Shown in pieces: positions 11,279-64,000 of a stretch of DNA of 64,000 bases. The notes under the pieces are model-generated. The model was given only the letters and a program-made list of their open reading frames with translations, did not search any database and had not been told where the DNA came from. Made by a program: the position numbers and the translations under genes. Source of the stretch: an uncultured bacterium (GTDB lineage Bacteria; Muiribacteriota; CAYSPT01). How positions within the stretch are numbered: position 1 is the stretch's first letter; each line of letters begins with the position of its first letter. Location: NCBI GenBank assembly GCA_964593455.1, contig CAZQHK010000016.1:18339-82338 (forward strand). Reading direction: 5' to 3'.

Positions 11279-11438
11279 CCGTGTAAAGACATTTTTTTAA
11301 AAAAATTAAACTTCAAATAACTCCCTCCCTCCGACTTATCCACACCTACTTGACCGCTAAAGCTGTGATTAATAGAGGTCTTAAAAATTATCAACAAGTT
11401 ATTAACAATTTATCCACAAGTTTTTCATAAAAAAATAC

Positions 11439-11466: not shown

Positions 11467-11474
11467 AAGTTACG

Positions 11475-11515: not shown

Positions 11516-11538
11516 CGGATTAGTGAGGGAGGTCTTCT

Positions 11539-11964: not shown

Positions 11965-12035
11965 GTATGTATTATGAGGGGGATTTAGACGTACGTATTA
12001 CTAAGGGGATCTAGAAGGAGGAGCGGGCGGTAGAT

Positions 12036-12521
12036 ATGATGCGACAGATACAAGATCACCAGCTGAGTACAAGAGAATCAGAGAAGGGGCTGGCAGCAAT
12101 ACTTACTGTGGCTGAAGCTTTGAAAAAAGAAAATGCAAAAGACAAACAACTTCAGAAACGGACTAAATCGAGTAAAAGTAAAATGTTTCAAGGTATGCAG
12201 GAAGAGATGACGTTTTCCGAGAAAATGAAATACCTGGACCAGCTTCCGGAACACAAGATGGCTCAGGGAAGTAAAGGCGATCGATATTTTGATATCGGCA
12301 CCTACCGGCCGTGGGGTATGGAGAGTATCAGTTTTCTGGTTGATATGATGCGTGAAAACGCGACTCCGATGGAAATAGCTTTTTTGAGCAGAAGATCATA
12401 CTACGATGTGCTGGCTATGCACCGTATTTACAAGTGGGTTATAAGGGAAGATTCTCAGGAGCGCCGTTTGCGTTTTAAGAAGAGGTTAAAAAAAGTAGTG
12501 GAAGCGGAAGAGGAGAGGTAG
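12036..12521 (+). CDS. Hypothetical protein inserted between mraZ and rsmH; possible small DNA-binding protein
   Basis: Strong RBS GAAGGAGGA ahead of ATGATG. 161 aa, Lys/Glu-rich N-terminus. C-terminal TPMEIAFLSRRSYYDVLAMHRI segment resembles a sigma-region-4-like HTH. No homolog recognised. Confidence 0.5.
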   Translation: MMRQIQDHQLSTRESEKGLAAILTVAEALKKENAKDKQLQKRTKSSKSKMFQGMQEEMTFSEKMKYLDQLPEHKMAQGSKGDRYFDIGTYRPWGMESISFLVDMMRENATPMEIAFLSRRSYYDVLAMHRIYKWVIREDSQERRLRFKKRLKKVVEAEEER

Positions 12522-12556
12522 AGAGTATTTCTGTCGCTGGTGGTCACTCGCCGGTT

Positions 12557-13465: not shown

Positions 13466-13468
13466 ACG

Positions 13469-13903
13469 GTGAGAGATCGCTCGATCATGCAATGGCGATA
13501 CGGAAAGAAGCACTCTCTCGCCATGTCCGGCTTAAATCGGGGGGACCAGCAGTCTCCTGCTTTATCCGGTGAAGGAAAACGGTGGGCCACCGGAGTTTCA
13601 AAGCTCCGCGGGGGGCGTCGCCTGGTGCTGGTCCTGGGGTATACCTGCCTGGTGGTTCTCCTCTCGGCCTTCGTGTTCCTGCATATTTCCCAGTATGTGG
13701 AAATGACGGAAATACAATTCAGAATTAGTAAGCTAAAAAGAGACTTTACCCGGATTGAACGGGATATTCAGGTTTTACAGTTCGAGTTTGAAAAGATGGC
13801 CAGTGCCACCACTATCGAGGCCGAAGCCGTCAGCCGACTGGGGATGGTTCATCCGTCGGAAATCATGTTTGTTCTTTGGAACGAGGAAGGGAAACCCAGG
13901 TGA
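13469..13903 (+). CDS. ftsL: Cell division protein FtsL-like (single TM helix plus coiled coil)
   Basis: Position between rsmH and ftsI. TM segment LVLVLGYTCLVVLLSAFVFL followed by a heptad-like region. Start codon uncertain. Confidence 0.6.
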   Translation: MRDRSIMQWRYGKKHSLAMSGLNRGDQQSPALSGEGKRWATGVSKLRGGRRLVLVLGYTCLVVLLSAFVFLHISQYVEMTEIQFRISKLKRDFTRIERDIQVLQFEFEKMASATTIEAEAVSRLGMVHPSEIMFVLWNEEGKPR

Positions 13904-16041
13904 GGGGACCGGTAGATCGTTGGCGCATCATTATTTTCGGCGTCATATGCCTTGTCTTCATGACACTGCTGCTGGTACGCCTTTTTGATATCCAATACCG
14001 ACAGGGTCCTCGTCTGAGGCGTTTGGCTCTTCAAGCACACGTAAAAAAAGTCATCATCGACCGCCAGCGAGGCACCATGACCGACGGCAACGGTCGTGTC
14101 CTGGCCGTCAGCATGAAAGTGCCGTCCTGTTTTGTCGATCCCAGCCAGATTAAAAATCCGGACGAAGTGGCTGCACTTCTCACTCCGCATATCAGGGGGG
14201 TTTCACCGGAAAAGCTCAAAAAGGCTCTTAATAAAAAAAGCCTTTTTGCCTGGATCGAACGAAAAATGGAAACCAAACGGGCTGCGGCCATCAAAGCGCT
14301 GAAGATCAAGGGAGTTTACTTTCAGAAAGAGTACAAGCGCTACTATCCCCGCGAGAGCATGGCCGCGAACCTGTTGGGATTTGTAGGTATGGACGACAAG
14401 GGACTCGAAGGAATCGAATATTTTTATGATAAGATCATGAAATGCGACTCCGGGTATGCCATGTACAAGGGAGATGTCCGGGGATATGAAATCCCCGAAA
14501 GCAACCGGGAAGAGAAACCTCCGGAAGGTGGATTTGACCTTGTGCTCTCTATCGATGAAGTCATTCAGCACATCGTCGAGGAAGAAGTCGGTAATGTTTA
14601 CCGGAAGTATAAAGCAGAGTCCGCCATGGGGATTGTCATGGACCCGCATACCGGTGAAATTCTGGCTATGGCCAACTTTCCCAGCTACAATCTTAACTCC
14701 TTTGCCAATACCAAAGCCTCCACCAGGCGAAACCGTGTCATCACCGATATGTTCGAACCCGGTTCGACCTTCAAGCTCATCATGGCTTCGGCTGCCGAGG
14801 AAATGGGGCTGGTTAACAGCATAGACCGGTTCGAATGCGACGGGAAAATACGTATTGGGGGGTTTACCATCCGTTGCCACGCCTCTCACGGCATCCAGAC
14901 TTTTACCCAGGTAATTGCCAACTCCTGCAATGAAGGTACGGTTGAAATGGCCAAGAAAATCGGAAAAAAACGGTTCTATGAGTATATCCGTCGGTTCGGC
15001 TTCGGCAAGAAGACTGGTATTGCTTTGCCGGGTGAGGTGCCGGGCCGGATTATGTCGTACAAACGGTGGGCGGATATCGACCTGGGAGCTATCGGTATGG
15101 GACAGGCGGTGGGGATTACTGCTCTACAGATGGTTTCGGCTGTATCTGCTATCATGAACGGCGGCCAGCTGGTCAAACCGCGGGTAGTGCTGGCGATTGC
15201 TGACCCTGAAACCGGCCGGGTTGTGAAGCGGTTCCCGAAAGAACTCAGGCAGCAGGCCATCTCTCCCGAGACCGCGGCAAAAGTGATCGAAATCATGAAA
15301 GAGGTCGTGGTTAGCGGTACCGGCCGTCGGGCAGCCATGAAAAATTACGTGTTGGCCGGCAAGACGGGAACAGCCCAGAAGATTGACCGTGAGACCGGTA
15401 AATACTCGAGTAAAAAAGTGATCTCTTCATTCATTGGCGGCGGACCTTTTCCCGACCCACGGTTTACCATCATGGTAGTCATGGACGAGCCTAAAGACAA
15501 ACGGGCTTCCACGGGTGTGGTGGCGGTAGAACCGTTTAAACGTATAGCTGAACGGTGTTTGAATTATCTTTCGGTGCCGCCTACGGTGGCCGAAGAATCG
15601 GACGATGTCAAAGCGGCTGGTGTGGCTCAGGCTCAGGCTGATGAAGATGTGGGCAGGCAATTCATGGTCCTGGTCCCCCGATTTTTGGGTATGGGAAAAG
15701 CCAAGGTTGAAAGTATCGCCCGGCAAAACGATATGAACATCGATCTGGGCGGTGACGGCCCGGTGGTGATATACCAGTCGCCCGAACCGGAAACTCCCAT
15801 CCTCCCCGAATCCCGTATCGTTGTCTACCTGGGCTATTCATATTCTACTCCGGTTTCTCTCTCCAACCGGATGATGCCGTGCCTGGTGGGTAAAACCATG
15901 ATGGAGAGCGGCGAAGAGTTAAGTCCGTATCCGGTCCTGGTCAGGTTCATGGGCTCCGGTCTGGCCTACGCCCAGGACCCGGTACCCGGCACCCCCCTGG
16001 AAACAGGCGCGGAAGTCAAAGTATTCTTCGCCGCGGATTAG
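13876..16041 (+). CDS. ftsI: Penicillin-binding protein 3 / FtsI (class B transpeptidase) with two C-terminal PASTA domains
   Basis: N-terminal TM, dimerisation domain and transpeptidase motifs STFK (FEPGSTFKL), SCN (NSCNEG) and KTGT (AGKTGTA). Two C-terminal PASTA-like repeats (VPRFLGMGKAKVESIARQ... and MPCLVGKTMMESGEEL...). Confidence 0.9.
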   Translation: MERGRETQVRGPVDRWRIIIFGVICLVFMTLLLVRLFDIQYRQGPRLRRLALQAHVKKVIIDRQRGTMTDGNGRVLAVSMKVPSCFVDPSQIKNPDEVAALLTPHIRGVSPEKLKKALNKKSLFAWIERKMETKRAAAIKALKIKGVYFQKEYKRYYPRESMAANLLGFVGMDDKGLEGIEYFYDKIMKCDSGYAMYKGDVRGYEIPESNREEKPPEGGFDLVLSIDEVIQHIVEEEVGNVYRKYKAESAMGIVMDPHTGEILAMANFPSYNLNSFANTKASTRRNRVITDMFEPGSTFKLIMASAAEEMGLVNSIDRFECDGKIRIGGFTIRCHASHGIQTFTQVIANSCNEGTVEMAKKIGKKRFYEYIRRFGFGKKTGIALPGEVPGRIMSYKRWADIDLGAIGMGQAVGITALQMVSAVSAIMNGGQLVKPRVVLAIADPETGRVVKRFPKELRQQAISPETAAKVIEIMKEVVVSGTGRRAAMKNYVLAGKTGTAQKIDRETGKYSSKKVISSFIGGGPFPDPRFTIMVVMDEPKDKRASTGVVAVEPFKRIAERCLNYLSVPPTVAEESDDVKAAGVAQAQADEDVGRQFMVLVPRFLGMGKAKVESIARQNDMNIDLGGDGPVVIYQSPEPETPILPESRIVVYLGYSYSTPVSLSNRMMPCLVGKTMMESGEELSPYPVLVRFMGSGLAYAQDPVPGTPLETGAEVKVFFAAD

Positions 16042-50356: not shown

Positions 50357-51205
50357 ATGGCTACAGAGTTTCATTCATCAGCCGACGGCCGCCGCACGTT
50401 GCTTGACGAACGTTCAAAACACCTTCGCCGCCTGGTCATCCGCGGACTCCAGGGAGGTAACCGGGGGCATCTGGGTTCTTCGTTATCGCTGATTGAAATA
50501 CTGCGGGTGCTTTACGATGATGTGCTGCGTTACCGGTCGGAAGAACCCTGGTGGGAGGGACGGGACCGATGTATTCTCAGCAAAGGGCACGGCTGTCTGG
50601 CTCTCTACGCTGTTTTGGTAGATAAAGGGTTTTTCCCCGCGGTAGAACTCGATCGTTTCTGCCGGTTTGACGCGGTTCTGGGCGGACATCCCGAGCGGGG
50701 CAAAATCCCGGGAGTCGAAGCTTCTACCGGGGCGTTGGGACACGGTCTTTCCATGGGAGTCGGGATGGCTCTGGCTCTCCGGGCCAAAAAAAAAGATTCC
50801 AGGGTTTTTGTGGTCATGGGTGATGGGGAGATCAACGAAGGTTCGGTCTGGGAGGCAGCCATGAGTGCCTCCAAACATAGACTTTCCAACTTGATCGCCC
50901 TGGTTGATTACAACAAGATCCAGTCGTATGGGCCTACGAGAGAAGTACAGGAACTCCACCCGTTGCCGGCCAAGTGGGAGAGTTTTGGGTTTGCTGTGCG
51001 TGAGGTTGACGGCCATGATGTAATGGCCTTATTCGAGCAGTTAAGCGATCTCCCGTTTAGCGCCGGCAGACCCGGTGTTGTCATCTGTCACACGGTCAAA
51101 GGGAAAGGGATTTCGTTTGCCGAGGGAAATCCGAATTGGCACCACAAATCCCGGATGAAACCGGAAGATTTTCAGTCTATGTATCGGGAAATTGAAGGGT
51201 ATTGA
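50357..51205 (+). CDS. Transketolase, N-terminal (TPP-binding) subunit of a split transketolase
   Basis: GHLGSSLS, SKGHG and GALGHGLSMGVGMAL, with the TPP-binding GDGEINEGSVWEA motif. Confidence 0.9.
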   Translation: MATEFHSSADGRRTLLDERSKHLRRLVIRGLQGGNRGHLGSSLSLIEILRVLYDDVLRYRSEEPWWEGRDRCILSKGHGCLALYAVLVDKGFFPAVELDRFCRFDAVLGGHPERGKIPGVEASTGALGHGLSMGVGMALALRAKKKDSRVFVVMGDGEINEGSVWEAAMSASKHRLSNLIALVDYNKIQSYGPTREVQELHPLPAKWESFGFAVREVDGHDVMALFEQLSDLPFSAGRPGVVICHTVKGKGISFAEGNPNWHHKSRMKPEDFQSMYREIEGY

Positions 51206-51208
51206 TTC

Positions 51209-52132
51209 GTGCGCAAGACCTGTCTCAACATGGTATATGAACTGGCCCGGAAAGATCCCCGGGTGCTCTTCATCGGATCCGATCTGGGGCCCGGTACCCT
51301 GGACCGGTTTCGGCAGGAGATGCCGGACAGGTTCTTCATGGAAGGTGTTTACGAGGGACATGTGGTCGGTATGGCGGCCGGCCTGGCCATGGAAGGATTT
51401 ATCCCGTATGTAAACACCATCGCCTCGTTTCTCACTCGCCGCTCATTCGAACAGGTAGTAATCGATCTTTGTCTGCAAAACTTGCCGGTGCGGCTTATCG
51501 GCAACGGGGGAGGGTTGGTGTACGCGCCCCTGGGGTTGACCCATATGGCGATAGAGGATATCGCTATTTTCAGGACCCTGCCAAACATGACCGTGGTGGC
51601 GCCCAGTGACGCTGAAGAGATGCGCCGGTTCATGGAAAAAAGCATCAATCTGCCCGGCCCTGTTTATATCCGCCTGGGAAAAGGTGGGGATCCCGTTATC
51701 TCACGGGATGAGAACGGTTTCACCATCGGCCGGGGAATCTTGTTGAAAGAACCGGGCCGGGTCCTGTTCATAGCTACGGGGGTGATGACCGGCCGTGTTC
51801 TTCAGGCCTCGGATATCCTGGATGGGCAGGGAATTACGGCGGGAGTTCTTCACGTCCACACGGTCAAACCTCTGGATGAGGATCAGATAGCCGGCCTGGT
51901 CGAGCGGGTGGAGGCCGTGGTCACGGTAGAGGAGCATGTTTTAATGGGTGGACTGGGGAGCGCCGTGGGCGAGCTTCTTATCGACCGTGGCGGCCGTGTC
52001 CCGAAGATGTTCAGGTTGGGACTCCCCGACCGGTTTCCGGAACGCTACGGCCGGCAGGATGATCTGCTTGAATTTTATGGTCTTCAGCCGGAACCCATCG
52101 CCCGGTCGGTGAGCGATTTCATGGCCCGGTAA
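51209..52132 (+). CDS. Transketolase, C-terminal (pyrimidine-binding) subunit of a split transketolase
   Basis: GTG start 3 nt after the N-subunit stop. FFMEGVYEGHVVGMAAGLAMEG and the transketolase C-terminal domain. Confidence 0.9.
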   Translation: MRKTCLNMVYELARKDPRVLFIGSDLGPGTLDRFRQEMPDRFFMEGVYEGHVVGMAAGLAMEGFIPYVNTIASFLTRRSFEQVVIDLCLQNLPVRLIGNGGGLVYAPLGLTHMAIEDIAIFRTLPNMTVVAPSDAEEMRRFMEKSINLPGPVYIRLGKGGDPVISRDENGFTIGRGILLKEPGRVLFIATGVMTGRVLQASDILDGQGITAGVLHVHTVKPLDEDQIAGLVERVEAVVTVEEHVLMGGLGSAVGELLIDRGGRVPKMFRLGLPDRFPERYGRQDDLLEFYGLQPEPIARSVSDFMAR

Positions 52133-52152
52133 TGAGGAAGGTTTAAACTATC

Positions 52153-52815
52153 ATGAAAGAGCTGCTGAATATTGTTACTCCGCTTCACCGGAAAACCAGC
52201 CGGGACTACGTGGGGCGCATGAACGACGGCAAGGTGGAGTGTATGGAGGTGGCCCGGCGGTACGGCCGTGAATTCTGGGACGGTAACCGGCGGTACGGTT
52301 ACGGCGGGTATAGCTATGACGGGCGCTGGGAACCGGTGGCCAGAAGCCTTATCGAGCAATACGGGCTGAGCGCGGACGCGGCTATCCTCGATGTCGGCTG
52401 CGGGAAAGGGTATCTTCTGCACGAGTTGAAGAAACTACTGCCACAGGCTCGACCAGCGGGTTTTGATATCTCCGGGTATGCCGTTGCCAACGCCAAAGAG
52501 GAAATACGTGACACTCTTTTTGTCAGCAATGCCCGTGACCCGTTCCCGTTCGATGATGCTGAATTCGATCTGGCTATTTCCCTGACCGCGCTCCACAACT
52601 TGCGGGTAAACGAGCTCAAGGCGGCCCTGGCTCAGATGGAACGCGTGGCCCGGAACAAGTACCTGGTGGTAGAAAGCTATCGCAGTGAACTGGAGCTTTT
52701 TAACCTCCAGTGCTGGGCCCTGACATGCGAGTCTTTCTACGATCCGCGGGAATGGGTGTGGCTGTTTAACGAGTTCGGTTACACCGGGGACTACGAGTTC
52801 ATATATTTTGAGTAG
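52153..52815 (+). CDS. Class I SAM-dependent methyltransferase
   Basis: Motif I ILDVGCGKGYL and post-I acidic residue. 220 aa. Confidence 0.75.
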   Translation: MKELLNIVTPLHRKTSRDYVGRMNDGKVECMEVARRYGREFWDGNRRYGYGGYSYDGRWEPVARSLIEQYGLSADAAILDVGCGKGYLLHELKKLLPQARPAGFDISGYAVANAKEEIRDTLFVSNARDPFPFDDAEFDLAISLTALHNLRVNELKAALAQMERVARNKYLVVESYRSELELFNLQCWALTCESFYDPREWVWLFNEFGYTGDYEFIYFE

Positions 52816-52826
52816 GGGAAAACTCC

Positions 52827-53897
52827 ATGGGACTCCTGTATACTGGAATGAAGATCTTTCATTTCAAAGATAAACTCGATTCTCTGCCCGCCGCCCACCA
52901 GGGAATTCTGCCACCGCTTCACGTGCGGATCAAACCTACCAACGTCTGCGCGCATAAGTGCCGCTACTGCGCCTACCGGATGGATAGTCTACAGCTTGGC
53001 CGGGACATGGAGGAGAGGGATACCATTGCGCGGGACAAGATGCTTGAAATTCTGGACGACCTGATCGAAATGGGAGTACGGGCGGTTACGTTCAGCGGCG
53101 GTGGCGACCCGTTTTACTACCCGCACCTCACCGAAGCGGTAAAGAAACTGGTTGCCAGCCCGGTCAAGTTTGCCTCTCTCACCAACGGTGCCCGGCTGGA
53201 GGATGAGCTGGCTGAACTTTTTGCTCACCACGCCACCTGGCTCAGGGTTTCCATCGACGGATGGGACGATTCGAGTTATGCCCGGTATCGCAATGTCCCT
53301 GAAGGAGAGTTCAGCCGGGTGATGAATAACATGGAACGCTTTAAAGAACTGGCCGGACCGTGTTACCTGGGAGTGAGTTTTGTGGTGGATAAGGAGAACG
53401 CGTCTCACGTCTACGAATTCATCATGAAGCTTCGCGATATCGGGGTGGACAGCGTCAAGGTGTCTCTCTGTATCGTCAGTAACAGCGGTCGGGAGAACAA
53501 CGAGTATCATCAACCTCACTTCGAGCTCGTGCAGAGGCAGATAAACCGGGCGTATTCCGATATCCGGGACGAACGGTTGGAGATCTTCAACTCTTATCAC
53601 CATGACCTGGAGACGTTTAAGAAACGATACCGTTGGTGTCCCTACATCCAGATACTGCCGATTATCGGGGCCGATCTTAACGTTTACTCCTGCCAGGATA
53701 AAGCGTACAATCTCGAGGAAGGTCTGATCGGCTCTCTCAAGGAGTGTTCGTTCAAAGAGTTCTGGTATTCAGGTAAAGAGAAATTTTTCACTGTGGACCC
53801 GTCGTGTCACTGTAACCATCACTGTGTGGCGGACGAGCGCAACCGCAGAGTGCTGGAGTACCTGGACGCCGACCCGGACCACGTGGTTTTTGTGTGA
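52827..53897 (+). CDS. Radical SAM enzyme with Cys-rich C-terminal region
   Basis: CAHKCRYCAY (CxxxCxxC) near the N-terminus, FSGGGDP glycine-rich motif, and additional C-terminal cysteines (CPYI...YSCQD...CHCNHHC) suggesting an auxiliary cluster. Confidence 0.75.
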   Translation: MGLLYTGMKIFHFKDKLDSLPAAHQGILPPLHVRIKPTNVCAHKCRYCAYRMDSLQLGRDMEERDTIARDKMLEILDDLIEMGVRAVTFSGGGDPFYYPHLTEAVKKLVASPVKFASLTNGARLEDELAELFAHHATWLRVSIDGWDDSSYARYRNVPEGEFSRVMNNMERFKELAGPCYLGVSFVVDKENASHVYEFIMKLRDIGVDSVKVSLCIVSNSGRENNEYHQPHFELVQRQINRAYSDIRDERLEIFNSYHHDLETFKKRYRWCPYIQILPIIGADLNVYSCQDKAYNLEEGLIGSLKECSFKEFWYSGKEKFFTVDPSCHCNHHCVADERNRRVLEYLDADPDHVVFV

Positions 53898-53912
53898 TTT
53901 GGAGGACCCAGA

Positions 53913-55010
53913 GTGAAAATTCCTTATCGCGATCTCAGCGTCAAGGACCTGCGGCGTAAACGCGAACTTCTGGCGGCCGTGGAAAAGGTTCTCTCTCATG
54001 GCCGGATGATTCTCGGCCCGGAGGTCGGTCGGTTCGAGCAGCTGATGGCCGATTCATGCTCAAAACAGTATGCGGTGGGGGTCAGTTCCGGTACCGACGC
54101 CCTGTACCTGGCTCTTCGCAGCCTGGGAGTCGGGCCGGGAGACGAGGTAATCACCACGCCACTTTCCTGGATTGCCACCACCAATGCCATCGTTCAGTGC
54201 GGCGCCGAAGCGGTGTTCGTGGATATCGGCGAGGATTTGAACATCGACGCCGATCTCATCAGTGAGGCCGTTACACCCCGGACCAGGGCCATACTGCCGG
54301 TACATTTTACCGGCCGTCTCTGTGCCATGGATACCATCCTGCATATTGCCGGGGAGCGAAATCTCCTGGTTATTGAAGATGCGGCCCAGGCTTTCGGGGC
54401 GCGCCGGGGAGAAAAGCAGGCGGGTTCTTTCGGGCATGCCGGCTGTTTCAGCATGAATCCCATGAAAATCTGGTGCGCCTGCGGTGAAGCCGGCGCCGTA
54501 GTGACCGATGACCGTGACGTGTATGAAAAGCTTTGTACGCTCAGGTACGCCGGTACGGTCAACAAGGAGGACTGCCATTACCCGAGCTTGAACGGGCGCA
54601 TCGACACGGTGCAGGCAGCCATGCTGCTGGTGGATTTTAATTATCTTCCGGAAAAAATCGCACGGCGGCAGGAGATTGCCCGCGTTTACACCGAAGGTCT
54701 CCATGATTTGGTGGGTTGTCCGCGGGAAGACGGTTCTTACCATTGCTACTACTCTTACACGGTGCTGGCCGAAAAGCGGGAAAAGCTGGTTGAACACCTG
54801 TCCGGGAAGGGTATCGAAACGAAAGTTCAACATCCGATCCTGATACCCTACCACACTGCCTATAAGGATCGTACCTATCCTCCGCTGCCGGTGGCCGAGC
54901 GGTTGGTGAACCGGATTCTCTGTCTTCCCAACCAGGAAGACCTGTCCACAGAGGAGATCGATTACGTGATCGGTTCGGTTCGGGAGTTCTACGAGGGGCA
55001 GGCACCATGA
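53913..55010 (+). CDS. DegT/DnrJ/EryC1/StrS-family PLP-dependent sugar aminotransferase
   Basis: GTG start after GGAGGA. Typical DegT blocks (ILGPEVGRFEQLMA, VSSGTDALYLAL, EDAAQAFGA) and conserved lysine in SMNPMKIW. Confidence 0.9.
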   Translation: MKIPYRDLSVKDLRRKRELLAAVEKVLSHGRMILGPEVGRFEQLMADSCSKQYAVGVSSGTDALYLALRSLGVGPGDEVITTPLSWIATTNAIVQCGAEAVFVDIGEDLNIDADLISEAVTPRTRAILPVHFTGRLCAMDTILHIAGERNLLVIEDAAQAFGARRGEKQAGSFGHAGCFSMNPMKIWCACGEAGAVVTDDRDVYEKLCTLRYAGTVNKEDCHYPSLNGRIDTVQAAMLLVDFNYLPEKIARRQEIARVYTEGLHDLVGCPREDGSYHCYYSYTVLAEKREKLVEHLSGKGIETKVQHPILIPYHTAYKDRTYPPLPVAERLVNRILCLPNQEDLSTEEIDYVIGSVREFYEGQAP

Positions 55011-55540
55011 AATACCGGAAGGAGAACGACGAGGTTTTTTACGCCGTCGGGGACTCCGTCCGTGTTACCCGGGCAGAAGTGGAGTTCGTTAAAACCGGGG
55101 CCCGGGACAGTATTCGGGGTCGTTTCCGTTTGTGCCTGCACTCCGATCCCGGGGCAAAAATACATCAAATGCTCATCGCCCATACCGGCGGTATCTATGT
55201 CCGCCCTCACAAGCATATCGGCCGGAGCGAGTCATTTCAGCTGATAGATGGGGCGCTTTGCGTAGTGGTGTTTGACTCTCGGGGAACGGTGACCGACGTG
55301 GTTTCAATGGACAATTCAGACGTCGGCTGTCCCTTTCTTTACCGTATTCCGGCAGACTGTTTTCACACGGTCCTGCTGCTCTCAAGCATGGTAGTGTTTC
55401 TCGAGACTACCGGTGGACCGTTTAATCCTTCGGAAACGGTCTTTGCACCGTGGGCGCCACCGGTCGAAAAAAAAGATGAGCTTTCTCTATACAGGCAAAA
55501 ACTCGATCTGGAGATAAATCAGTGGCCTGATAAGAAATGA
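55007..55540 (+). CDS. WbuC-family cupin-fold protein
   Basis: ATGA overlap with the aminotransferase. The pattern RLCLHSDPGAKIHQMLIAHTGGIYVRPHKH matches my recollection of the WbuC cupin family (O-antigen-cluster associated). Confidence 0.6.
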   Translation: MKYRKENDEVFYAVGDSVRVTRAEVEFVKTGARDSIRGRFRLCLHSDPGAKIHQMLIAHTGGIYVRPHKHIGRSESFQLIDGALCVVVFDSRGTVTDVVSMDNSDVGCPFLYRIPADCFHTVLLLSSMVVFLETTGGPFNPSETVFAPWAPPVEKKDELSLYRQKLDLEINQWPDKK

Positions 55541-55673
55541 TTTCTCACCTGCAAAAACATTATTCTGGTTACGTGTTCCGGATCAATTTGGTGATATAAT
55601 CAGAACGATCTGTAAACGTGGTATCTTTGTTGCAAAGTCAGGTTTGGAAGACCCTGATAAGGAGATTTCCCGG

Positions 55674-56645
55674 ATGAATTGGTTCTACATGAAACTCCAG
55701 CCGAAAGATGAGGATGATGTGCTCTTCGTTCATTACGGGTTACCCCGGACGGGAAGTTCTACCATCCGGTTTCTCATCCGCCGCTACTGCAACCTTCTCG
55801 GACTGAAATGGGAATCTTTCGAGGCGCAAAACGCGGTAGTCAATCCCGGTTGTAAATATCTGCTGGTTGAAATCCCGTATCCTGTTCATCTGGCCACCAA
55901 CCGGGAATGCCGTTATATAACGACGCTGAGAGATCCGGTCAAAGCGGTGTGTTCCTGGTATTTCTGGCTCACCAGGATCGGCCGGAAAATCACTCTGGAA
56001 GACTATGTCCGGCAATTACCGAAATCCTATAATCTCATGTCGCGCTGGCTCATAAGGCTCAATGATGAAACCGTGAGCGAAATGAATCGCGCTCAACCGG
56101 ATTTTATGAACGACACGACAGGATTTTTCAATGATATTCCTGATGATGAGTTGTACAAAGCAGCTCTCGAGGCAATAGAAAGCAAGATATCATTGATCGG
56201 TATCCTGGAGCAGTTCGAGGATTTTTCTTTTGCTATGCTCGACTTGTTTGCCTGGAAGATTCTGCCTGTCTATAGCCGGACGAATTACAGTATAAAACCC
56301 AGAGATTGGTCATTTAACCGTCTCGAAAAATCGATGAAAAAGAAGATTATGTCCTCTTCAGCTGTGGACAGGCGCGTGTTTTCTTATGTGAGGAAACGTT
56401 TTCGGGATGTGTCTGCGGATGTGCGGAATAAGTATGGTAACGAGATCGAGAAATACCGTTCCTTCTGCCGCCAATTGGATGATTTTATCGTTCGAGAAAA
56501 AGGACTGGTTTTGGAAGATGGGAATATCGTCTCTCAAAACTGGGAACAAACCGTTGTAGAAAAGCCTATAGGCATCGAAATAAAAGCCTCGATACAGAAG
56601 CAGTTGGGAATAATCATGGCAGAGGATTGGTTACCTATTATCTAA
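55674..56645 (+). CDS. Sulfotransferase-family protein (PAPS-dependent)
   Basis: AAGGAG RBS 9 nt before ATG 55674. 5'-PSB motif YGLPRTGSST and 3'-PB motif TLRDPVKAV. The ORF call from 55644 (TTG) is the longer alternative. Confidence 0.65.
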   Translation: MNWFYMKLQPKDEDDVLFVHYGLPRTGSSTIRFLIRRYCNLLGLKWESFEAQNAVVNPGCKYLLVEIPYPVHLATNRECRYITTLRDPVKAVCSWYFWLTRIGRKITLEDYVRQLPKSYNLMSRWLIRLNDETVSEMNRAQPDFMNDTTGFFNDIPDDELYKAALEAIESKISLIGILEQFEDFSFAMLDLFAWKILPVYSRTNYSIKPRDWSFNRLEKSMKKKIMSSSAVDRRVFSYVRKRFRDVSADVRNKYGNEIEKYRSFCRQLDDFIVREKGLVLEDGNIVSQNWEQTVVEKPIGIEIKASIQKQLGIIMAEDWLPII

Positions 56646-56749: not shown

Positions 56750-56934
56750 TAGCCTGGATATTTCACCAGTCTTCCTGCTGCGGCCACGGATGCACCCGCA
56801 TCTTCTGCGTTGTGCTCGGTCGCCTGTCCTCGACGTATCGCAGAGGATACGTCTGCGGAAGGCTCGGTTGCACGCCTTGAATTTGCAGGCACCTCCGCGA
56901 CCTCGCTACGGAAACTCGTGAAATATCCGGGCTA
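56750..56934. mobile_element. MITE-like repeat element, copy B (~185 bp), inverted relative to copy A
   Basis: Left TIR TAGCCTGGATATTTCACCAG and right TIR (reverse complement) TAGCCCGGATATTTCACGAG. The interior is the reverse complement of copy A at ~85% identity. The right-end TAG (complement of CTA at 56932-56934) is the stop codon of pmbA on the minus strand. Confidence 0.6.
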
Positions 56935-58356
56935 GGCCGAAACCGAGACATCGTCCACCAGTATCGCGGGACAGAAGATATTGTTGCTGGCCTGGTAAGG
57001 TGTGTCTCCCAACGCCAGCAGGTGGTTGAGATCTTCCAGGATATTGCCCGATACCATGGTGTTCTTCACGCGGCCGGCGAGCTGCCCGTTCTTGATCCGG
57101 TATCCGAGATAGACATTCACCGAGTAATCCCCGTTTTGAATATCGCCCCGGCCGGCGCCCATGACCTGGTTCACGAGCAGACCATCGTCCACCATGCGGA
57201 TAATCTCTTCGAGCGGGGCAGGTCCTGGAGAGACGGTTATATTGCTGATGGTGGTGTGCGGCATGACGGCAAAACTGGTACCGCCGCTGCGGCTTCTCCG
57301 GTACCCGTTGCCGGTGGGTGGGATTTTGAGACGCGCGGCGGTCTCCAGATCGCAGATAATCGAGCTGGGAATGCCGTTTTCTACCAGGACGGTCCGCCGT
57401 GACGGCGTTCCCTCGTCGTCAAAGGGCGAGCTTCCGGGTAGAAAATCCATGGTGCTGTCATCCACCACCGTCAGGTTTGAGCTGAAGGTTTCCTTATCCA
57501 TCCTGGATTGCAGGATGGAGATACCTTCCAGAAAACTCCGGCCGTTCACGGCCGCCAACAGCGGCAGCAAAATGGCATTTATCGCCGATCCGGTAAAAAG
57601 CACCGGACATTGTCCGGTGCTCATGGAGCTTATTTCGCGGGCCAGTTGAACTTTTTCCACGAGTTTCCGGGCCACACCCGCTAAATGCTCGGGGTCCCAA
57701 CGGCAGGAGTAAGAACTCTCGGAACAGGAGAGAATGTCACCTTCTTTTACGAGTTTAGCCGAGACGAATACCACTACCAGGCTCTGGAGATAGCTCCCTT
57801 TCAAAGCCTGGTTGTTTCTTACCGATTTGAGCTCGAACACGCGATACACATCAGCCAGGACATTGGCGTCGGGTAGATCTTTCAGCACCCGGTCGACGAC
57901 CTCCCGGCCGATATCAATGAGACTGTTGATGTCCTGGTCCGCCACCTCCCGGTCGAAGGTTTTGACCGGAGAAAAAGAGGTGGCCGGGGTCAGGAACGAG
58001 GCTGCCGAGGTGGGACCGAGCGGGGCCATTTCCAAAGCCAGCAGGAGCGCTTCCATCAATCGGCTGGACTCGGTGGTGGAGGCGATTCCCATGCGTCCGT
58101 CCCGTAAAACTCTGAGTCCCCAGCCTTCGGACTCCTTGTGTTGGCTCTGTTTGAGGTCGCGGTTCTCAAAGCTGAAATGATCCAAATCCCGCGTTTCATA
58201 AAAAATTTCCAGGGATGTCCCCCGGGCCCTGGCGGCTTCTTCAAGCCCCGCGTAGAGAACTTCACGGGCCTGCTCGTTTTTCAGGGTGCTTTCGTTTCCT
58301 TGAATCTCCGTCATCTGCTTCATGTCCTTCACGTTACATGCCTCCAACCACGACAT
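56932..58356 (-). CDS. pmbA: TldE/PmbA-family protein (non-catalytic partner of TldD metallopeptidase)
   Basis: PmbA/TldD fold, lacks HExxxH. Paired with and overlapping tldD. Probable start at M12 (MKQMTEI). Confidence 0.8.
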   Translation of the reverse strand: MSWLEACNVKDMKQMTEIQGNESTLKNEQAREVLYAGLEEAARARGTSLEIFYETRDLDHFSFENRDLKQSQHKESEGWGLRVLRDGRMGIASTTESSRLMEALLLALEMAPLGPTSAASFLTPATSFSPVKTFDREVADQDINSLIDIGREVVDRVLKDLPDANVLADVYRVFELKSVRNNQALKGSYLQSLVVVFVSAKLVKEGDILSCSESSYSCRWDPEHLAGVARKLVEKVQLAREISSMSTGQCPVLFTGSAINAILLPLLAAVNGRSFLEGISILQSRMDKETFSSNLTVVDDSTMDFLPGSSPFDDEGTPSRRTVLVENGIPSSIICDLETAARLKIPPTGNGYRRSRSGGTSFAVMPHTTISNITVSPGPAPLEEIIRMVDDGLLVNQVMGAGRGDIQNGDYSVNVYLGYRIKNGQLAGRVKNTMVSGNILEDLNHLLALGDTPYQASNNIFCPAILVDDVSVSA

Positions 58357-59695
58357 CCCTGATCATCAGGGCCGGGCATCCCTTTGAACGGGGCAGGGGA
58401 AACTGTCCGCCTTTCCCGCATCCACCGCCTTCGCTCCAGACTATCTCGTCGCCGACGGCCTCGATGTTTTTGAGCGATTCGAACACGTTTCCGGTCAGCA
58501 TCACATTACGCACCGGTTCCGCTATTTTGCCTTTTCTGATCATGTATCCATGCTGGGCCCTGAACGTAAACATCTCCTGCGAGGTCTGGCCGCCGGTGGT
58601 GCCGCAGGCCAGTATACCCAGTTTTATGTCGCCGATCATCTCGTCCAAACTGGTATCACCCGGTTCCACAAACGTATTGGTCATCCGCACCAGCGGTGAG
58701 AATCGGTGGTCAAGGGCCCGTGCGTTTCCGGTAACGGGTTCATCCATCCTGAAAGAGGTCTCCCGCGAATGCATCCGGCCAACCAGTTCCCCTTCCCGTA
58801 TCAGGTAGGTTTTTTTGGACGGGACACCTTCATCGTCGTAGAGATAGGACCCCCGGTGTCCCGGGATAGCGGCTCCATCACCGATGTTCAGAGTCGATGG
58901 CCCGAACCTGGTACCGATCGAGAGCAGTTCGCAGAGCCGCTTGTTGTTGCAGACCGAGTCCCCCTCCGACAGGTGTCCGAAAGCTTCGTGAATGAAGGTA
59001 CCGGCCAGGTAGGGATCGAGCACTACCGGATAACGGCCTCCTTTGACCGGGGAAGCCGAGAGCATATTCACGGACCGTTTGACGATCTCTTCCACCTGGT
59101 CGTGGCGTGATTCGAACATTTTGCCGGCTTCGATGGTTCCAAAACTCATGATGGCTTTTTGAATGGTGTCGTAGCGTCGGGCTAAAGCGCTGGCGCTCAT
59201 GGTATAGTCGGCTTTCTCCTGGGATACCAGGCAGCCGTCGGAGGTTAGAATCGTTACTTTTTTAAACACGTCATGGTAAGCGACGACGGAACTTTCTATG
59301 GCCGGCCGGTGAGAGAAAATTATCCCGTTATAGTCTTCCAGCATGGAGAGTTTGCGGGCCAGTAGTATCCGCCGTGGATCGTCCTCGGGTTTGATTTTTA
59401 TCTGGGCTACCTCCCGGAGAACCGGTGCCAGGCCTGTCTTCTGGGCGGCTACGCATCGGGCCATCCGGTCGGCCAGGCGGATATTATACTCCAGATTCTT
59501 CAGATTGTTGAACGAGGAAAATCCCCATCCTCCTTCGTGGAAGACCCGGACATTACCGCCCACGAAGGTGCTTTCCGTCAATTTTTCCAGTTTCTCGCTT
59601 CTGAAAAGAATCTCGGTGGTATCGTATTCCTCTATCCGGATTTCAATGTAGTCGGCCTTGATAGACCGGATAGCGTCCACCACATGGTTCTCCAC
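58334..59695 (-). CDS. tldD: TldD-family zinc metallopeptidase
   Basis: HEAFGH (HExxxH) motif. C-terminal Gly-rich GGGCGKGGQ loop typical of TldD. Confidence 0.9.
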   Translation of the reverse strand: MENHVVDAIRSIKADYIEIRIEEYDTTEILFRSEKLEKLTESTFVGGNVRVFHEGGWGFSSFNNLKNLEYNIRLADRMARCVAAQKTGLAPVLREVAQIKIKPEDDPRRILLARKLSMLEDYNGIIFSHRPAIESSVVAYHDVFKKVTILTSDGCLVSQEKADYTMSASALARRYDTIQKAIMSFGTIEAGKMFESRHDQVEEIVKRSVNMLSASPVKGGRYPVVLDPYLAGTFIHEAFGHLSEGDSVCNNKRLCELLSIGTRFGPSTLNIGDGAAIPGHRGSYLYDDEGVPSKKTYLIREGELVGRMHSRETSFRMDEPVTGNARALDHRFSPLVRMTNTFVEPGDTSLDEMIGDIKLGILACGTTGGQTSQEMFTFRAQHGYMIRKGKIAEPVRNVMLTGNVFESLKNIEAVGDEIVWSEGGGCGKGGQFPLPRSKGCPALMIRDVVVGGM

Positions 59696-59963
59696 GGTAC
59701 CGGGTCTCCTTTCATGATTTTTAGCGCTCTCGTTCAGGAGAAGCTATGATACCATGAATAGACAGCCACTCCTTGATCCGTTTAATCATTATCTCTCCGA
59801 AGTTAAACTCATCTTCATTTTACTGTGCTGCGGGGTCGACGTCAATTTTGAATGCAGGGAGGGCTTAAACCACTTCCAAAGAGTAGGCCGATGTGCTACA
59901 ATTAGGCCTTCATTCAGACCGTGTTTTATTTGGAATTATTTATCTTGAGAGGAGCGTACCCAT

Positions 59964-61052
59964 ATGCCGATTGTGAACGCTCTGCGGTTTGACTATAAAC
60001 GTGGAGCTATCTTAAGCGACGAAGAATACTGGCATCGCCGCCGCCGCCGGACATTTTTCTCCGAGAATCTTCACAATATTGTTCCTGAACAAATTTCAGA
60101 CAAAACGGGACTTGAAGCTGTGTTGGGCGGGGCCGGGAGTCCTACCTTCTTTCTTGATGTGGTCCGGACGGTTCGCTCCCGGTTGGCGGTCTATCTGCCG
60201 GAAAACGGGGAAGAACTGAAAGAAGGCGCTCCTTCCACCCTTGAAGAGTTGGGAAAGATCGTTCTCGAGGAACTGCACAAAGCGCTGAAACGACGCCTGG
60301 AGAACGTGATTCGTCTCTACTTCGGATTTGGGATGGATGATCTTAACCAGGGATCTTTTGATTTCAACGGCGAGTCGGTGGAGATTCTTCAGGACCTGGT
60401 TAAGAAGGAAGCCAGGGAGGTTTCTTCGGGAAAAGGAAAAGTGTCGTTTATCAACGACCTGATCGAGAGTCGGGGAGTGCTTTTCGGTTATGATGAAAAG
60501 AAAGGCGTCACCTGTTATTACATTAACGTCAAAGAAGGCGTTCTCTCCGTCACTTCGGGCGGTTTTGAAGCAATCGGCAACGGTAAGTACGCTTCGGGAA
60601 TCACGTTTGCCGAGTTCCTGAACGGTAAGATACTGGACGAGCGCCGAGGCGGATTTGACCCGGTGGAAGGAATGATTGTCCTGCTTAAATCCGGCCTGGC
60701 CGCGGTACAGTATTTCAGCGAAGTAGGCGGAGCCTTCAATATCATCTACCTCGACAATACGGCCGGCTCCCACGCCGAGCGTTATCGTGAAATCCCGTAT
60801 CATACCACCACGCTGGCTGCTGAAATTGTCACCGCTATGGAGTGCGGCGCTTTAGACTACGAGAAAGCATATAACCTGATGGGTTCCTTGATGTTTGGCG
60901 GATCTTCCGTGGAGAAAGTTGAAAAGGAACTCTTTGCTTCCGTTCCCGACGCCGATCGTCTCCATCTGCTGTTGGAGGGCTACAAACTCAGTCAACTGGA
61001 GGTACAGGATCGCAAATCTATCGGACATACCGGAGAGGAAGCGGGCCAATGA
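59964..61052 (+). CDS. Hypothetical protein, paralog 1. N-terminal domain resembles HslV/proteasome-beta Ntn hydrolases but has Pro at position 2
   Basis: Strong RBS [29 protein letters not shown] aligns with HslV [40 protein letters not shown] aligns with HslV DKVIAGFAGGTADAFTLFE. Has a ~180-aa C-terminal extension of unknown fold. Paralogous to the next gene. Confidence 0.35.
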   Translation: [362 protein letters not shown]

Positions 61053-62149
61053 CTTCGATCAACGCCATCCGTTTCGACAGCCTTAAAGGGGCCATGGTAT
61101 GTGACGAATGCCGGGGTTGGAACCCGGAAGACATGAGAATTTACTCCGCCGATAAGATCAAGCCGGTTATTCCCGATGAAATCAGGGACCGTTACGGTTT
61201 AGTCGCCTGTTACGGCAATACCGGTTCTTCCAGCACCGGTGACGAGATCAAACAGAAAATCCGGGAACGGGTTCAGAAAGAGTTCGACGATGCCCGGGAA
61301 CGGTTGGGCCGTCCGCCCGAAACATTCCTGACTATACGGAACCTGGCCTACCTGGCTTACGACGAGCAGTGCAAGATGAAACACAGGCACGTGGACGAGC
61401 ACATGGTCAGCCATTATGGTTTTAACACCCGGGATTTCTGCCGCGGATCCTACACGATCGATGACACCACCCAGCCGGGTGGAAAAAGAAAAATAGAGAT
61501 CAAGGACAAGGACGTACAGAAGGAGATTTTAGAAGCGCTCACCTGGAAGAATCGCGGGCAAACCAACCGGGGCGTGTTCGTCAATGCCGGACTGCTGGCC
61601 GGTTATGAACCCCGGGAAGGGTTCAGGATCTACCACACATCGCTTATCGAGTTCATATGCGAACCGGTTCAGTTTATCTTTCTGGCTGAAGGTTCGGGGC
61701 TGGACGCCACCGATCTCTTGATGTCCGAATACATGGGCCGGAAATCATTACCGGAACGGCGAGACGTGATCGACCGGGTGGAAGGTATCATGGCTCTCAT
61801 CTGTTCGGTAAATACCGCCTCGCGGCACAATATCGGGGTTGGGGGATATTTTAACATCATCCTGGTTGACGGCCGGGAGAAGGACCCGGCCTCAATGATG
61901 CGCTGTATCAACGACCACCGGGCCAAATTGGTGACCCAGATAGCCGATGCTTACACGCAGAACCTTGTTTCCCGCCGATTGGCCTTTAAATTGGTGGAAG
62001 ATGTTTTATATAATAAGGCCGGGTTTCAGGAAACCCGCCAGGCATTTTTTGAGGGATGCAAAGAACCGGAGATCCTGCGAAGACACCTTCGTGGTTACCG
62101 GATTGCTTCCCCGAAAGGTCCGGTACGGTTAGGGATATTTCTTCCATAG
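61049..62149 (+). CDS. Hypothetical protein, paralog 2. HslV/proteasome-beta-like N-terminus beginning Met-Thr-Ser (potential N-terminal Thr nucleophile)
   Basis: ATGA-coupled to paralog 1. MTSINAIRFDSLKGAMVCDE and YGLVACYGNTGSSSTGDEI blocks parallel paralog 1 and HslV. Shares the later blocks G(I/L)(T/D)..(E/D)(F/L)L.G(K/R) and FNII(Y/L)(L/V)D with paralog 1. Confidence 0.35.
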   Translation: MTSINAIRFDSLKGAMVCDECRGWNPEDMRIYSADKIKPVIPDEIRDRYGLVACYGNTGSSSTGDEIKQKIRERVQKEFDDARERLGRPPETFLTIRNLAYLAYDEQCKMKHRHVDEHMVSHYGFNTRDFCRGSYTIDDTTQPGGKRKIEIKDKDVQKEILEALTWKNRGQTNRGVFVNAGLLAGYEPREGFRIYHTSLIEFICEPVQFIFLAEGSGLDATDLLMSEYMGRKSLPERRDVIDRVEGIMALICSVNTASRHNIGVGGYFNIILVDGREKDPASMMRCINDHRAKLVTQIADAYTQNLVSRRLAFKLVEDVLYNKAGFQETRQAFFEGCKEPEILRRHLRGYRIASPKGPVRLGIFLP

Positions 62150-62168
62150 CCTGGATATTTCACGAGAG
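62147..62168. repeat. Solo terminal repeat (TAGCCTGGATATTTCACGAGAG) of the MITE-like family
   Basis: Identical over 16 nt to the left TIR of copy B and near-identical to B's right TIR. The TAG is the stop codon of CDS 61049-62149. No matching second TIR within 300 bp. Confidence 0.35.
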
Positions 62169-62231
62169 TAGGCACACTGGTTAGATAGTCAAACAGGACC
62201 CGGGGATACGGATTAATGGAGGTGATGGAGT

Positions 62232-63674
62232 GTGGTGGCACGAAGCGTAGCCCTCTGGGCGCTTGACATGGCCATGGAGCATGGCGCCTCTTATGCTGAA
62301 GTACGGCTTCACCGCATCATCTCCGAGTCGATCACCATGCGGGACGGTATCGTCGTCGGGCTTAACCGGCATAGCGAACTGGGTATGGGCGTACGGGTCC
62401 TGGTGGAAGGCGCCTGGGGGTTTGCCGGTAACCCCGACCTGACCGGCGATAAAGTGACCAAAGCTGTTAAACGGGCTATTGCTATTGCCCGGGCCTCAGC
62501 CCGGGCCGGCGGTACGAAGGTCAAACTCGCTCCGGTGGAAAAACAGATCGGAGAATGGTGCTCGCCCTGCGAAAAAGATCCCTGGACGGTACCGCTGGAA
62601 GAGAAAATCGATCTACTGCAGCGCTGCGACGACGCCATGGCCGCGGTGCCGGGGGTGAAGGTCCGGGAGTCGATCCTGCGGTTCTGGAGAGAACACAAAC
62701 TGTTGGCGACTTCCATCGGTACCCTGGTCGAGCAAACTATCTACAACACCACTGCCGGTGTTACTGCTAAGGCGGTGGATAAAGGAGATTTTCAGGTCCG
62801 GAACTATCCGATGTGTTTCGGTGGTAACTGGCGACAGGCGGGATACGAGGCGGTTGAGAAACTGGATCTGCTTAAAAACGCCGGCCGTGTGGCTGAGGAG
62901 GCCGTCCAGTTGCTCAAAGCGGACCTGGCGCCCACCGGCAAGGCGGACTTGATCCTGGGCGGGAACCAGCTTGCTCTCCAGGTACACGAGTCCGTAGGTC
63001 ACCCGATCGAGCTCGACCGGGTCCTGGGAACCGAGGCGGATTTTGCCGGTACCAGCTTCCTGTCTCCGGACATGTTGAACAACTTCACCTACGGGTCAAA
63101 GGTCGTCAACATCGTGGCCGATTCCGTTACTCCCGGCGGACTGGGTACGTTCGGATACGACGACGAGGGAGTGCCGGCGGGCAGCCATGATATCGTCAAG
63201 GAAGGCCGGTTTATCGGGTTTCTCACGTCCCGGGAGACTGCCGCCGATATCGGCACGGTTTCCATGGGCGCCATGCGGGCCGACGGATGGAACAATATCC
63301 CACTGATCAGGATGGTCAATGTCAGTCTCCTTCCGGGGGATTGCACCTATGATGAAATAATCGAGTCTACCGAACGGGGGCTGCTCATCACCTGTAACCG
63401 CAGTTGGAGCATCGACGACAAACGTCTCAATTTTCAGTTTGGCGGAGAGATCGGGTGGTGGATCGAGAAAGGCCGGATCGTCAAGATCGTCAAGAACCCC
63501 ACCTACAACGGTATAACGCCGGTTTTCTGGCGTAGCTGCGATGCTATCGCCAACCGGGACAGTTGGAAGATGTGGGGTTTTGCCAATTGCGGAAAAGGTC
63601 GTCCGGCCCAGGCCGGACGGGTGGGGCACGGCGTCAGTTGTGCCCGGTTCAGGAACGTGGAGATAGGGGTGTAA
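62232..63674 (+). CDS. tldD: TldD-family zinc metallopeptidase, second copy
   Basis: HESVGH (HExxxH) motif. C-terminal Gly/Cys-rich FANCGKGRP loop. Clearly homologous to, but divergent from, the tldD at 58334-59695. Confidence 0.9.
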   Translation: MVARSVALWALDMAMEHGASYAEVRLHRIISESITMRDGIVVGLNRHSELGMGVRVLVEGAWGFAGNPDLTGDKVTKAVKRAIAIARASARAGGTKVKLAPVEKQIGEWCSPCEKDPWTVPLEEKIDLLQRCDDAMAAVPGVKVRESILRFWREHKLLATSIGTLVEQTIYNTTAGVTAKAVDKGDFQVRNYPMCFGGNWRQAGYEAVEKLDLLKNAGRVAEEAVQLLKADLAPTGKADLILGGNQLALQVHESVGHPIELDRVLGTEADFAGTSFLSPDMLNNFTYGSKVVNIVADSVTPGGLGTFGYDDEGVPAGSHDIVKEGRFIGFLTSRETAADIGTVSMGAMRADGWNNIPLIRMVNVSLLPGDCTYDEIIESTERGLLITCNRSWSIDDKRLNFQFGGEIGWWIEKGRIVKIVKNPTYNGITPVFWRSCDAIANRDSWKMWGFANCGKGRPAQAGRVGHGVSCARFRNVEIGV

Positions 63675-63676: not shown

Positions 63677-64000
63677 ATGATCCAGGAAGACTGGGCCAGG
63701 CGCCTGCTTAACGAAGCCATCTCCTTTTCTTCGGCGGACGGGACGGAGATCATCCTGACGGGGGGCAAAATGTTCCTGACCAGATTCGCTGACAACCGCA
63801 TTCACCAGAATGTTTTGAAAAAAGATTACGAGCTTATGGTGAAGACTGTCCTGGGAAATAAAGCCGGGGTGGCTTCCCGCAATGTCTTCGACGGTATCGA
63901 GCTCAAACGCCTGGTAGACGATGCTCTGGAGATAACGCGCCACCAGAAGGAAGACCCAGAGCTGCCGCCTCTGATGGCCATGCCCGATCCTGAAAAGAAT
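63677..64000 (+). CDS. pmbA: TldE/PmbA-family protein, second copy; 3' end beyond the window
   Basis: ATG 3 nt after the tldD stop. The frame is open to the window end (108 codons). The N-terminal region carries no HExxxH; assignment rests on size and pairing with tldD. Confidence 0.55.
   Translation, partial: MIQEDWARRLLNEAISFSSADGTEIILTGGKMFLTRFADNRIHQNVLKKDYELMVKTVLGNKAGVASRNVFDGIELKRLVDDALEITRHQKEDPELPPLMAMPDPEKN

Follow-up and report, generated by a model that had tools for sequence, protein, structure and literature searches.

Do two adjacent bacterial genes, par1 and par2, encode an inactive and an active subunit of a proteasome-like enzyme? This question is raised by a 64,000-nucleotide stretch of DNA from an uncultured bacterium of the Muiribacteriota (positions 18,339 to 82,338 of contig CAZQHK010000016.1, assembly GCA_964593455.1; referred to as the window), in which the product of the upstream gene begins with Met-Pro and that of the downstream gene with Met-Thr. 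An earlier note on this DNA had taken this contrast as the mark of a non-catalytic and a catalytic subunit. Judged from sequence, par2 as a catalytic subunit and par1 as its non-catalytic paralog is indeed the best reading of the locus, because par2 keeps the catalytic residues of the proteasome, par1 lacks them, and the pair is conserved, usually with overlapping genes. We regard it as very likely that the two proteins are an active/inactive pair with a proteasome fold. For the full model, in which they would form a divergent hetero-complex of the proteasome superfamily (MEROPS T1-like) with peptidase function, we estimate a probability of roughly three in four.

Catalytic residues and fold

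The active-site residues of par2 were located by reference to three sequences, the beta subunit of Thermoplasma acidophilum, PrcB of Mycobacterium tuberculosis (Mtb) and HslV of Escherichia coli, each of which was verified against the PDB. When the family alignment was compared with Mtb PrcB alone, hhalign returned a probability of 9% and aligned the C-terminal half only; after relatives from DPANN archaea had been added to the catalytic profile and the three-sequence template was used, the probability rose to 88% (E 3.3e-7). In this way the alignment to the active-site residues of HslV suggested in the earlier note was obtained, and equivalents of Thr1, residue 17, Lys33, Gly47 and Ser129 could all be mapped in par2 (Table 1; residue numbers of par2 count Met1). 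Gly56 corresponds to Gly47 of the oxyanion hole, and Asn261 and Val264 align with the proteasome residues Asp166 and Ser169.

How well these residues are conserved was assessed in 179 distinct sequences of the catalytic type and 77 of the partner type, collected from the protein database and 84 fetched loci. Thr occupies position 2 in all 179 catalytic-type proteins, and each of 120 database homologs of par2 begins with Met-Thr or Val-Thr, whereas the partners carry Ala (53), Gly (13), Ser (7), Pro (3) or, in a single case, Thr. The contrast between Met-Thr and Met-Pro noticed at this locus is thus a rule of the whole family. Lys36 is likewise invariant in the catalytic type (179/179) and found in none of the 77 partners, which have Asn (34), Ser (19), His (15) or other residues instead; Ser216 is present in all 179 catalytic-type sequences, and Ala (27), Lys (13), Gln (10), Ser (7) and others are found at this position in the partners. 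The equivalents of Thr1, Lys33 and Ser129 are lacking family-wide in the partner type, with Pro2 and an Asn in place of Lys36 in par1 of the window, and all five catalytic equivalents are kept in par2, which supports the proposed pattern of a catalytic plus a non-catalytic subunit. Other positions are shared between the two types: Asp19 is found in 100% of the sequences of both, Glu20 in 100% of the catalytic type and in 60 partners (Gln in 11, other residues in the rest), and position 56 is either Gly or Ala (167 and 12 catalytic-type sequences, 69 and 8 partners, respectively).

The observation that par1 keeps a block with two consecutive glycines better than par2 also proved correct for the family as a whole, with Gly at position 57 of par2 in 67 of the 77 partners versus 28 of the 179 catalytic-type sequences. 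This difference is of little functional weight, however, because Gly56, the equivalent of Gly47, is retained in both groups. In all 77 partners the residue at position 2 is small and would still allow excision of Met, which suggests that a processed N-terminus may be a structural requirement of the fold even without catalysis. The only partner-type protein with Thr2 (MTIVNSLLFD; L021:8828-9922) has Asn at position 36 and is therefore probably inactive.

The models of both proteins show the four-layer alpha-beta-beta-alpha fold of proteasome-type N-terminal nucleophile (Ntn) hydrolases. AlphaFold2 models built from the family alignment reached a predicted local distance difference test score (pLDDT) of 92.1 and a predicted template modelling score (pTM) of 0.89 for par2, and of 91.8 and 0.88 for par1. 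Foldseek matched the par1 model best to Mtb 20S subunits and to Anbu (E 1e-8, probability 1.00), and by these models the fold is nearer to 20S and Anbu subunits than to HslV. The lack of an Ntn fold had been named in the earlier note as an argument against its proposal, and the models show the opposite. In the par2 model the core is enlarged by a long insertion behind helix 2 (about residues 124-179), by a C-terminal helical extension (about residues 290-347) and by a further helix that sits between strands S3 and S4 (residues 43-49). The par1 model opens with strand S1 at residue 4 and is complete in its fold, with the C-terminal helices and both of the insertions specific to the family.

Neither par1 nor par2 matches any Pfam or NCBIfam model, and no match to PF00227 (Proteasome) was obtained for them at E <= 1; their homology to this family is therefore supported transitively and by structure. 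Sub-threshold matches to PF00227 occur in 11 of 82 family members (best E 4.8e-4), which is far more than for any other Pfam family, and a search of the PDB with the family profile yielded weak matches (E 0.1-1), nearly all of which were to proteasome subunits aligned at the GSG block. In addition, an exhaustive profile search covering 1.84 billion cluster representatives retrieved 373 relatives. Among these are DPANN archaeal relatives of ~310 amino acids (aa) with a Met-Thr start, found by profile at E values of 1e-35 to 1e-50, and these proteins pass PF00227 with 24-33 bits, the cut-off being 22.4. Phage genomes searched with par2 and with one DPANN relative gave no match.

Pairing, distribution and origin of the family

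With 26% identity across 355 residues (E 3e-37), par1 and par2 are paralogs. The two genes overlap by 4 bp (ATGA), with the start codon of par2 reaching into the stop codon of par1, and this overlap, together with the Shine-Dalgarno-like sequence inside the 3' end of par1, suggests that the two genes are translationally coupled. The pairing is a regular feature of the family: at 76 of 81 assessable loci the catalytic gene is immediately preceded by a partner gene of the same orientation, and the 4-bp overlap is the commonest spacing (36 of the 76 paired loci).

A scan of GTDB species representatives yielded 79 loci, all of them in metagenome-assembled genomes (MAGs). These belong to Planctomycetota (including two loci in one Candidatus Kuenenia MAG), CSSED10-310, Vulcanimicrobiota/Eremiobacterota, Ignavibacteria/Bacteroidota, Sumerlaeota, Wallbacteria, Schekmanbacteria, Gemmatimonadota and others, and most of the MAGs hold two to four copies. 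For example, three divergent pairs occur on a single 4.29-Mb contig (ENA ERZ21831077 contig_2; loci L003, L004 and L005). Each has a neighbourhood of its own, and two of the three are separated by just ~15 kb. The presence of two to four pairs per MAG raises the possibility of mixed assemblies or of specialised variants.

Five catalytic genes from two clades stand without an adjacent upstream partner (L031, L033 and L035 at about 10001-11044 or 3364-4398; L077 and L079 at about 10001-11086). The genomes of all five also contain at least one partner-catalytic pair at another locus, and the solo genes may borrow a partner in trans or may form homo-oligomers.

In a neighbour-joining tree of representatives at 50% identity, the catalytic and the partner proteins form monophyletic sister clades, with the solo DPANN family as outgroup. 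Rough as it is, this tree indicates a single ancient duplication, after which one of the copies lost its active site. This event would be independent of the split between the alpha and beta subunits of the 20S proteasome. The DPANN proteins (P0211-P0271 and P0289-P0343, from Woesearchaeota and Nanoarchaeota) have no partner and are the nearest outgroup of the paired family. One of them (L085:2431-3381) sits among Fic, Bro-N and kinase genes in what resembles a mobile-element context, and is adjoined by a small RIO/Pkinase gene (L085:3398-4012, minus strand).

Gene neighbourhoods

Three active/inactive paralog pairs stand side by side in the window, as par1 and par2 are flanked by two TldD/TldE pairs (Table 1). 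The three complete flanking genes encode PmbA_TldD domains, and the HExxxH motif is found in both TldD copies and is absent from the complete TldE. The fragment of the second TldE is 79% identical to the start of a 450-aa gene with a PmbA_TldD_3rd domain in a close relative (L001:10655-12007). No terminator-like site was seen in the gap between par2 and the second TldD gene (62150-62231).

Table 1. Positions of par1, par2, their predicted active-site codons and the flanking genes in the window
Feature	Positions	Strand	Remarks
TldE/PmbA-type partner 1	56932-58356	-	Pfam PmbA_TldD_1st and 3rd; no HExxxH
TldD-type metallopeptidase 1	58334-59695	-	HEAFGH; Pfam PmbA_TldD domains 1-3 and NCBIfam TldD models; divergent from the par pair
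Shine-Dalgarno-like GAGAGGAG	59947-59954	+	GGAG-type, 9 nt ahead of par1 ATG
par1	59964-61052	+	362 aa, Met-Pro start; predicted dead partner subunit with proteasome fold
Shine-Dalgarno-like GGAGAGGA	61032-61039	+	GGAG-type, within par1 3' end, 9 nt ahead of par2 ATG
par2	61049-62149	+	366 aa, starts MTSINAIRFD; predicted catalytic-type subunit with proteasome fold
Thr2 codon (ACT)	61052-61054	+	Predicted N-terminal nucleophile after Met removal; aligned to Thr1 of all three references
Asp19-Glu20 codons	61103-61108	+	Asp/Glu17 equivalent; hhalign pairs Glu20 with residue 17, register ambiguous by one residue
Lys36 codon	61154-61156	+	Lys33 equivalent by hhalign
Ser216 codon (GSG motif)	61694-61696	+	Ser129 equivalent; proteasome GSG aligned in PDB profile search and by hhalign
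TldD-type metallopeptidase 2	62232-63674	+	HESVGH, Pfam; 82 nt downstream of par2
TldE/PmbA-type partner 2, 5' part	63677-64000	+	Cut by window end

The arrangement of six genes is retained in relatives with 75-77% identity (L001, L002, L006). In a distant relative, L028, the order is TldD, TldE, an 825-aa ILEI-domain protein, partner, catalytic gene and M29 aminopeptidase; the 825-aa protein (L028:6134-8611) carries its ILEI domain at the C-terminus and is encoded on the same strand as the pair. As a general partner of the family, however, TldD/TldE was rejected, because within 10 kb of the pair these genes were found only in the close relatives of the window and in L028.

In one clade (L004:4173-10519, with equivalents in L036, L038, L048, L050, L051 and L057), the order is ATP-grasp, M20 peptidase, partner, catalytic gene and ATP-grasp, an arrangement that resembles Anbu operons with circularly permuted ATP-grasp genes. 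The catalytic proteins of this clade start with MTVVNAIRFD..VSWG and the partners with MALINLIRID. Another clade adjoins an Opp-type peptide transporter. The neighbours are repeatedly peptide-related, and no single neighbour is universal.

The largest cluster of neighbouring genes, present at 23 of the 84 loci, consists of heterogeneous Ser/Thr kinases with TPR, STAND or beta-propeller domains, which vary in position and orientation. In several unrelated clades, Hanks-type kinase genes are found no farther than about 1 kb from the pair (L010:7324-11103, L020:11870-13864, L021:6319-8658, L047:2728-4761, L053:5539-8676 and, on the minus strand, L029/L030 at about 11055-15630 and L067:11189-14440). 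This adjacency, which we take as a lead only, could reflect control by phosphorylation or just a high density of kinase genes in these genomes.

Upstream of the first TldE gene, the window contains a cluster of the sugar or secondary metabolite type (50357-56645, plus strand) with no evident link to the pair. It comprises a split transketolase, an S-adenosylmethionine (SAM) methyltransferase, a radical SAM protein, a DegT aminotransferase and two open reading frames without Pfam match. Synteny with L001 begins at the first radical SAM gene; in L001, the DegT aminotransferase and TldE are separated by genes for a DUF6016 protein, a second radical SAM protein and a glycosyltransferase of family 9.

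Known proteasome homologs and alternative readings

With the 20S proteasome, par2 shares the equivalents of Thr1, Asp/Glu17, Lys33, Gly47 and Ser129, and both systems combine a catalytic subunit with a non-catalytic homolog encoded by the neighbouring gene. Differences exist as well: the closest relative of par1 is par2 and vice versa, which places their duplication apart from that of alpha and beta; par1 and par2 are also ~150 residues longer, with the insertion behind helix 2 and a C-terminal helical bundle, and have no propeptide. In par1 no Pfam match to the N-terminal gating helix of alpha subunits (H0, PF10584) was found, and no such extension is present in the partners, which share their starting position in the alignment with the catalytic proteins. 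Because the alpha-type extension is lacking, we liken the partner to an inactive beta rather than to an alpha subunit. The analogy with proteasome alpha and beta subunits put forward in the earlier note is therefore apt for the pairing of an active with an inactive protein and less fitting for the kind of partner. In eukaryotes, the subunits beta3, beta4, beta6 and beta7 have kept the beta-type fold, have lost Thr1 and stand beside active paralogs in one particle. Like par1, such inactive beta subunits lack Thr1 and Lys33 and keep the position of the beta-type N-terminus; unlike them, par1 is bacterial, has no propeptide and belongs to a two-gene pair that arose by an unrelated duplication.

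The propeptide-less arrangement of par2 is that of HslV, Anbu and BPH. Anbu also begins with Met-Thr, and one clade of the par family lies beside ATP-grasp genes. Anbu operons contain ATP-grasp, alpha-E and transglutaminase genes and have been linked to peptide synthesis or modification. None of these three gene types was found in the neighbourhood of the pair in the window. In addition, Anbu is a single homo-oligomeric subunit of ~240 aa without a dead paralog, and no Pfam match links the two families. HslV shares with par2 the Met-Thr start exposed by methionine aminopeptidase and the chemistry of Thr1, Lys33 and Gly45, but it has ~175 aa, forms a homo-dodecamer and is encoded beside the AAA+ protein HslU; a ~175-aa HslV with HslU is not what is seen here, and no such ATPase is conserved at the par loci.

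A survey by Fuchs, Alva and Lupas (2021), based on a database release of August 2020, described 22 new families of proteasome homologs, e.g. PHI (represented by WP_012956871.1) and PMI-1 to PMI-6 (HDY66466.1 for PMI-4), for which neither an informative genomic context nor an inactive paralog partner was reported (PMC8665760). Like the par family, these comprise divergent Thr1 homologs with insertions after helices H1 and H2 and with C-terminal extensions, and they are broadly similar in occurrence, being found in the Planctomycetota-Verrucomicrobiota-Chlamydiota (PVC) group, other bacteria and archaea; for the insertion-bearing families a non-canonical assembly was suspected (PMC8665760). The pairing with a dead partner, which defines the par family, sets it apart in this comparison, which is one of descriptions rather than of sequences. 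A few members of the par family (OGL43578.1 and OQA18071.1) were presumably in GenBank before August 2020, and par2 may sit in one of the clusters of that survey; PHI or a PMI cluster would be plausible. In the literature, including papers that cite the survey, no description of the par1/par2 pair was found, and no searchable paper contains the accession number of a family member.

Methionine aminopeptidase is known to remove Met in front of a small residue such as Thr, and in HslV this exposes the N-terminal Thr. By analogy, the enzyme would remove Met1 of par2 and expose Thr2 as nucleophile, which, as conservation and the predicted fold suggest, would act with Lys36, Asp19/Glu20, Gly56 and Ser216 in proteasome-type Ntn catalysis. 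Through translational coupling, par1 would be made in step with par2 and in roughly equal amounts. After the duplication, par1 would have lost the nucleophile, the Lys and the Ser but not the fold or the small residue at position 2, and gene pairing and architecture suggest that it most likely joins par2 in a hetero-oligomer as a non-catalytic structural or regulatory partner, whose assembly may be non-canonical due to the insertion behind helix 2 and the C-terminal extension. Peptides or unfolded proteins are the most likely substrates of the par2 enzyme. In this lineage, the products may pass to the two flanking TldD/TldE pairs for trimming, which is the weakest step of this scheme.

Several points weigh against this model. 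Binding of par1 to par2 is something we infer from gene pairing and retained architecture, and the insertion behind helix 2 and the C-terminal extension, as modelled, may block classical ring stacking. Asp166 and Ser169 of the 20S beta subunit are not retained in par2, and both window proteins stay below every Pfam threshold. No AAA+ unfoldase is conserved near the pair in related loci, and TldD/TldE genes are confined to the close relatives of the window and L028. Furthermore, the catalytic subunit may act alone in some lineages, since five catalytic genes have no adjacent upstream partner, and the tree from which the duplication was deduced is a distance tree without support values.

Connectase, a proteasome homolog, acts as a ligase, and par2 might similarly be a Thr1 Ntn enzyme that does not degrade proteins but serves as a sequence-specific transpeptidase or ligase, or as an amidase for a modified peptide or a small molecule, with par1 aiding in substrate recognition. 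The extra helix between strands S3 and S4 lies at the site of the signature insertion of connectase (PMC8665760), the large insertions could prevent ring formation, one clade, in a setting like that of Anbu operons, is located between ATP-grasp ligase genes and an M20 peptidase, and an unfoldase is not conserved nearby. However, the S3/S4 insertion comprises just ~10 residues and does not form a two-helix lid, and the neighbours in the window and in L028 are hydrolytic peptidases (TldD/TldE, M29), not ligases. The catalytic residues do not separate hydrolysis from transpeptidation, and we consider this explanation unlikely. A distinctly improbable alternative is that no complex exists, par1 being a separate, neofunctionalised pseudoenzyme (e.g. 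a substrate-binding adaptor, an inhibitor or a chaperone) and par2 a homo-oligomer like HslV, Anbu or BPH. It would agree with the solo catalytic genes in two clades, with the solo DPANN relatives and with the fact that all characterised bacterial homologs other than the 20S proteasome are homo-oligomers (PMC8665760), but the near-universal pairing in the same order across phyla, usually with the 4-bp overlap, is typical of obligate partners, the partner keeps the whole fold with both insertions and the C-terminal helices, and the small residue at position 2 of every partner suggests that the same interfaces are under conserved structural constraints.

It can hardly be credited that the contrast between Met-Thr and Met-Pro is an artefact of annotation, with true starts elsewhere and no Thr exposed. 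The start codons considered here are predicted from sequence, and no point in favour of such an artefact was found. In the stop-to-stop frames, the ATGs of par1 and par2 are the first possible start codons downstream of an in-frame stop, so that no longer N-terminus is possible for either protein, and each is preceded at 9 nt by a Shine-Dalgarno-like sequence. The alignment opens exactly at Met-Thr in the 179 catalytic-type sequences and at Met followed by Ala, Gly, Ser or Pro in 76 of the 77 partners (by Thr in the other), and a start further downstream would remove the conserved strand S1.

The preferred reading therefore remains that of a catalytic par2 and a non-catalytic par1, the fold and chemistry of which are known; the novelty seems to lie in the conserved and independently evolved two-gene architecture of an active and a dead protein, and in its distribution. 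The characterised prokaryotic homologs outside the 20S proteasome (HslV, Anbu, BPH and connectase) consist of one kind of subunit. Tentatively, and with considerable doubt, we would go further and suggest that the pair might form an undescribed proteasome-type particle of bacteria, composed of a catalytic beta-like subunit and its dead beta-like paralog, the two being products of a duplication separate from the alpha/beta split. If the model holds true, the pair would represent an independent replay of the step that gave rise to catalytic and non-catalytic proteasome subunits, i.e. a second, convergent invention. The two to four divergent pairs per genome might then co-assemble as mixed rings in a eukaryote-like manner, and the pairs may be coupled to downstream peptidases (TldD/TldE, M29, M20) or to Ser/Thr-kinase signalling. 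The pair, with its two genes, would also be a simple system in which to study why dead paralogs are recruited by self-compartmentalising proteases, and several hundred 'hypothetical proteins', spread with the pair over many uncultured phyla, would gain an annotation.

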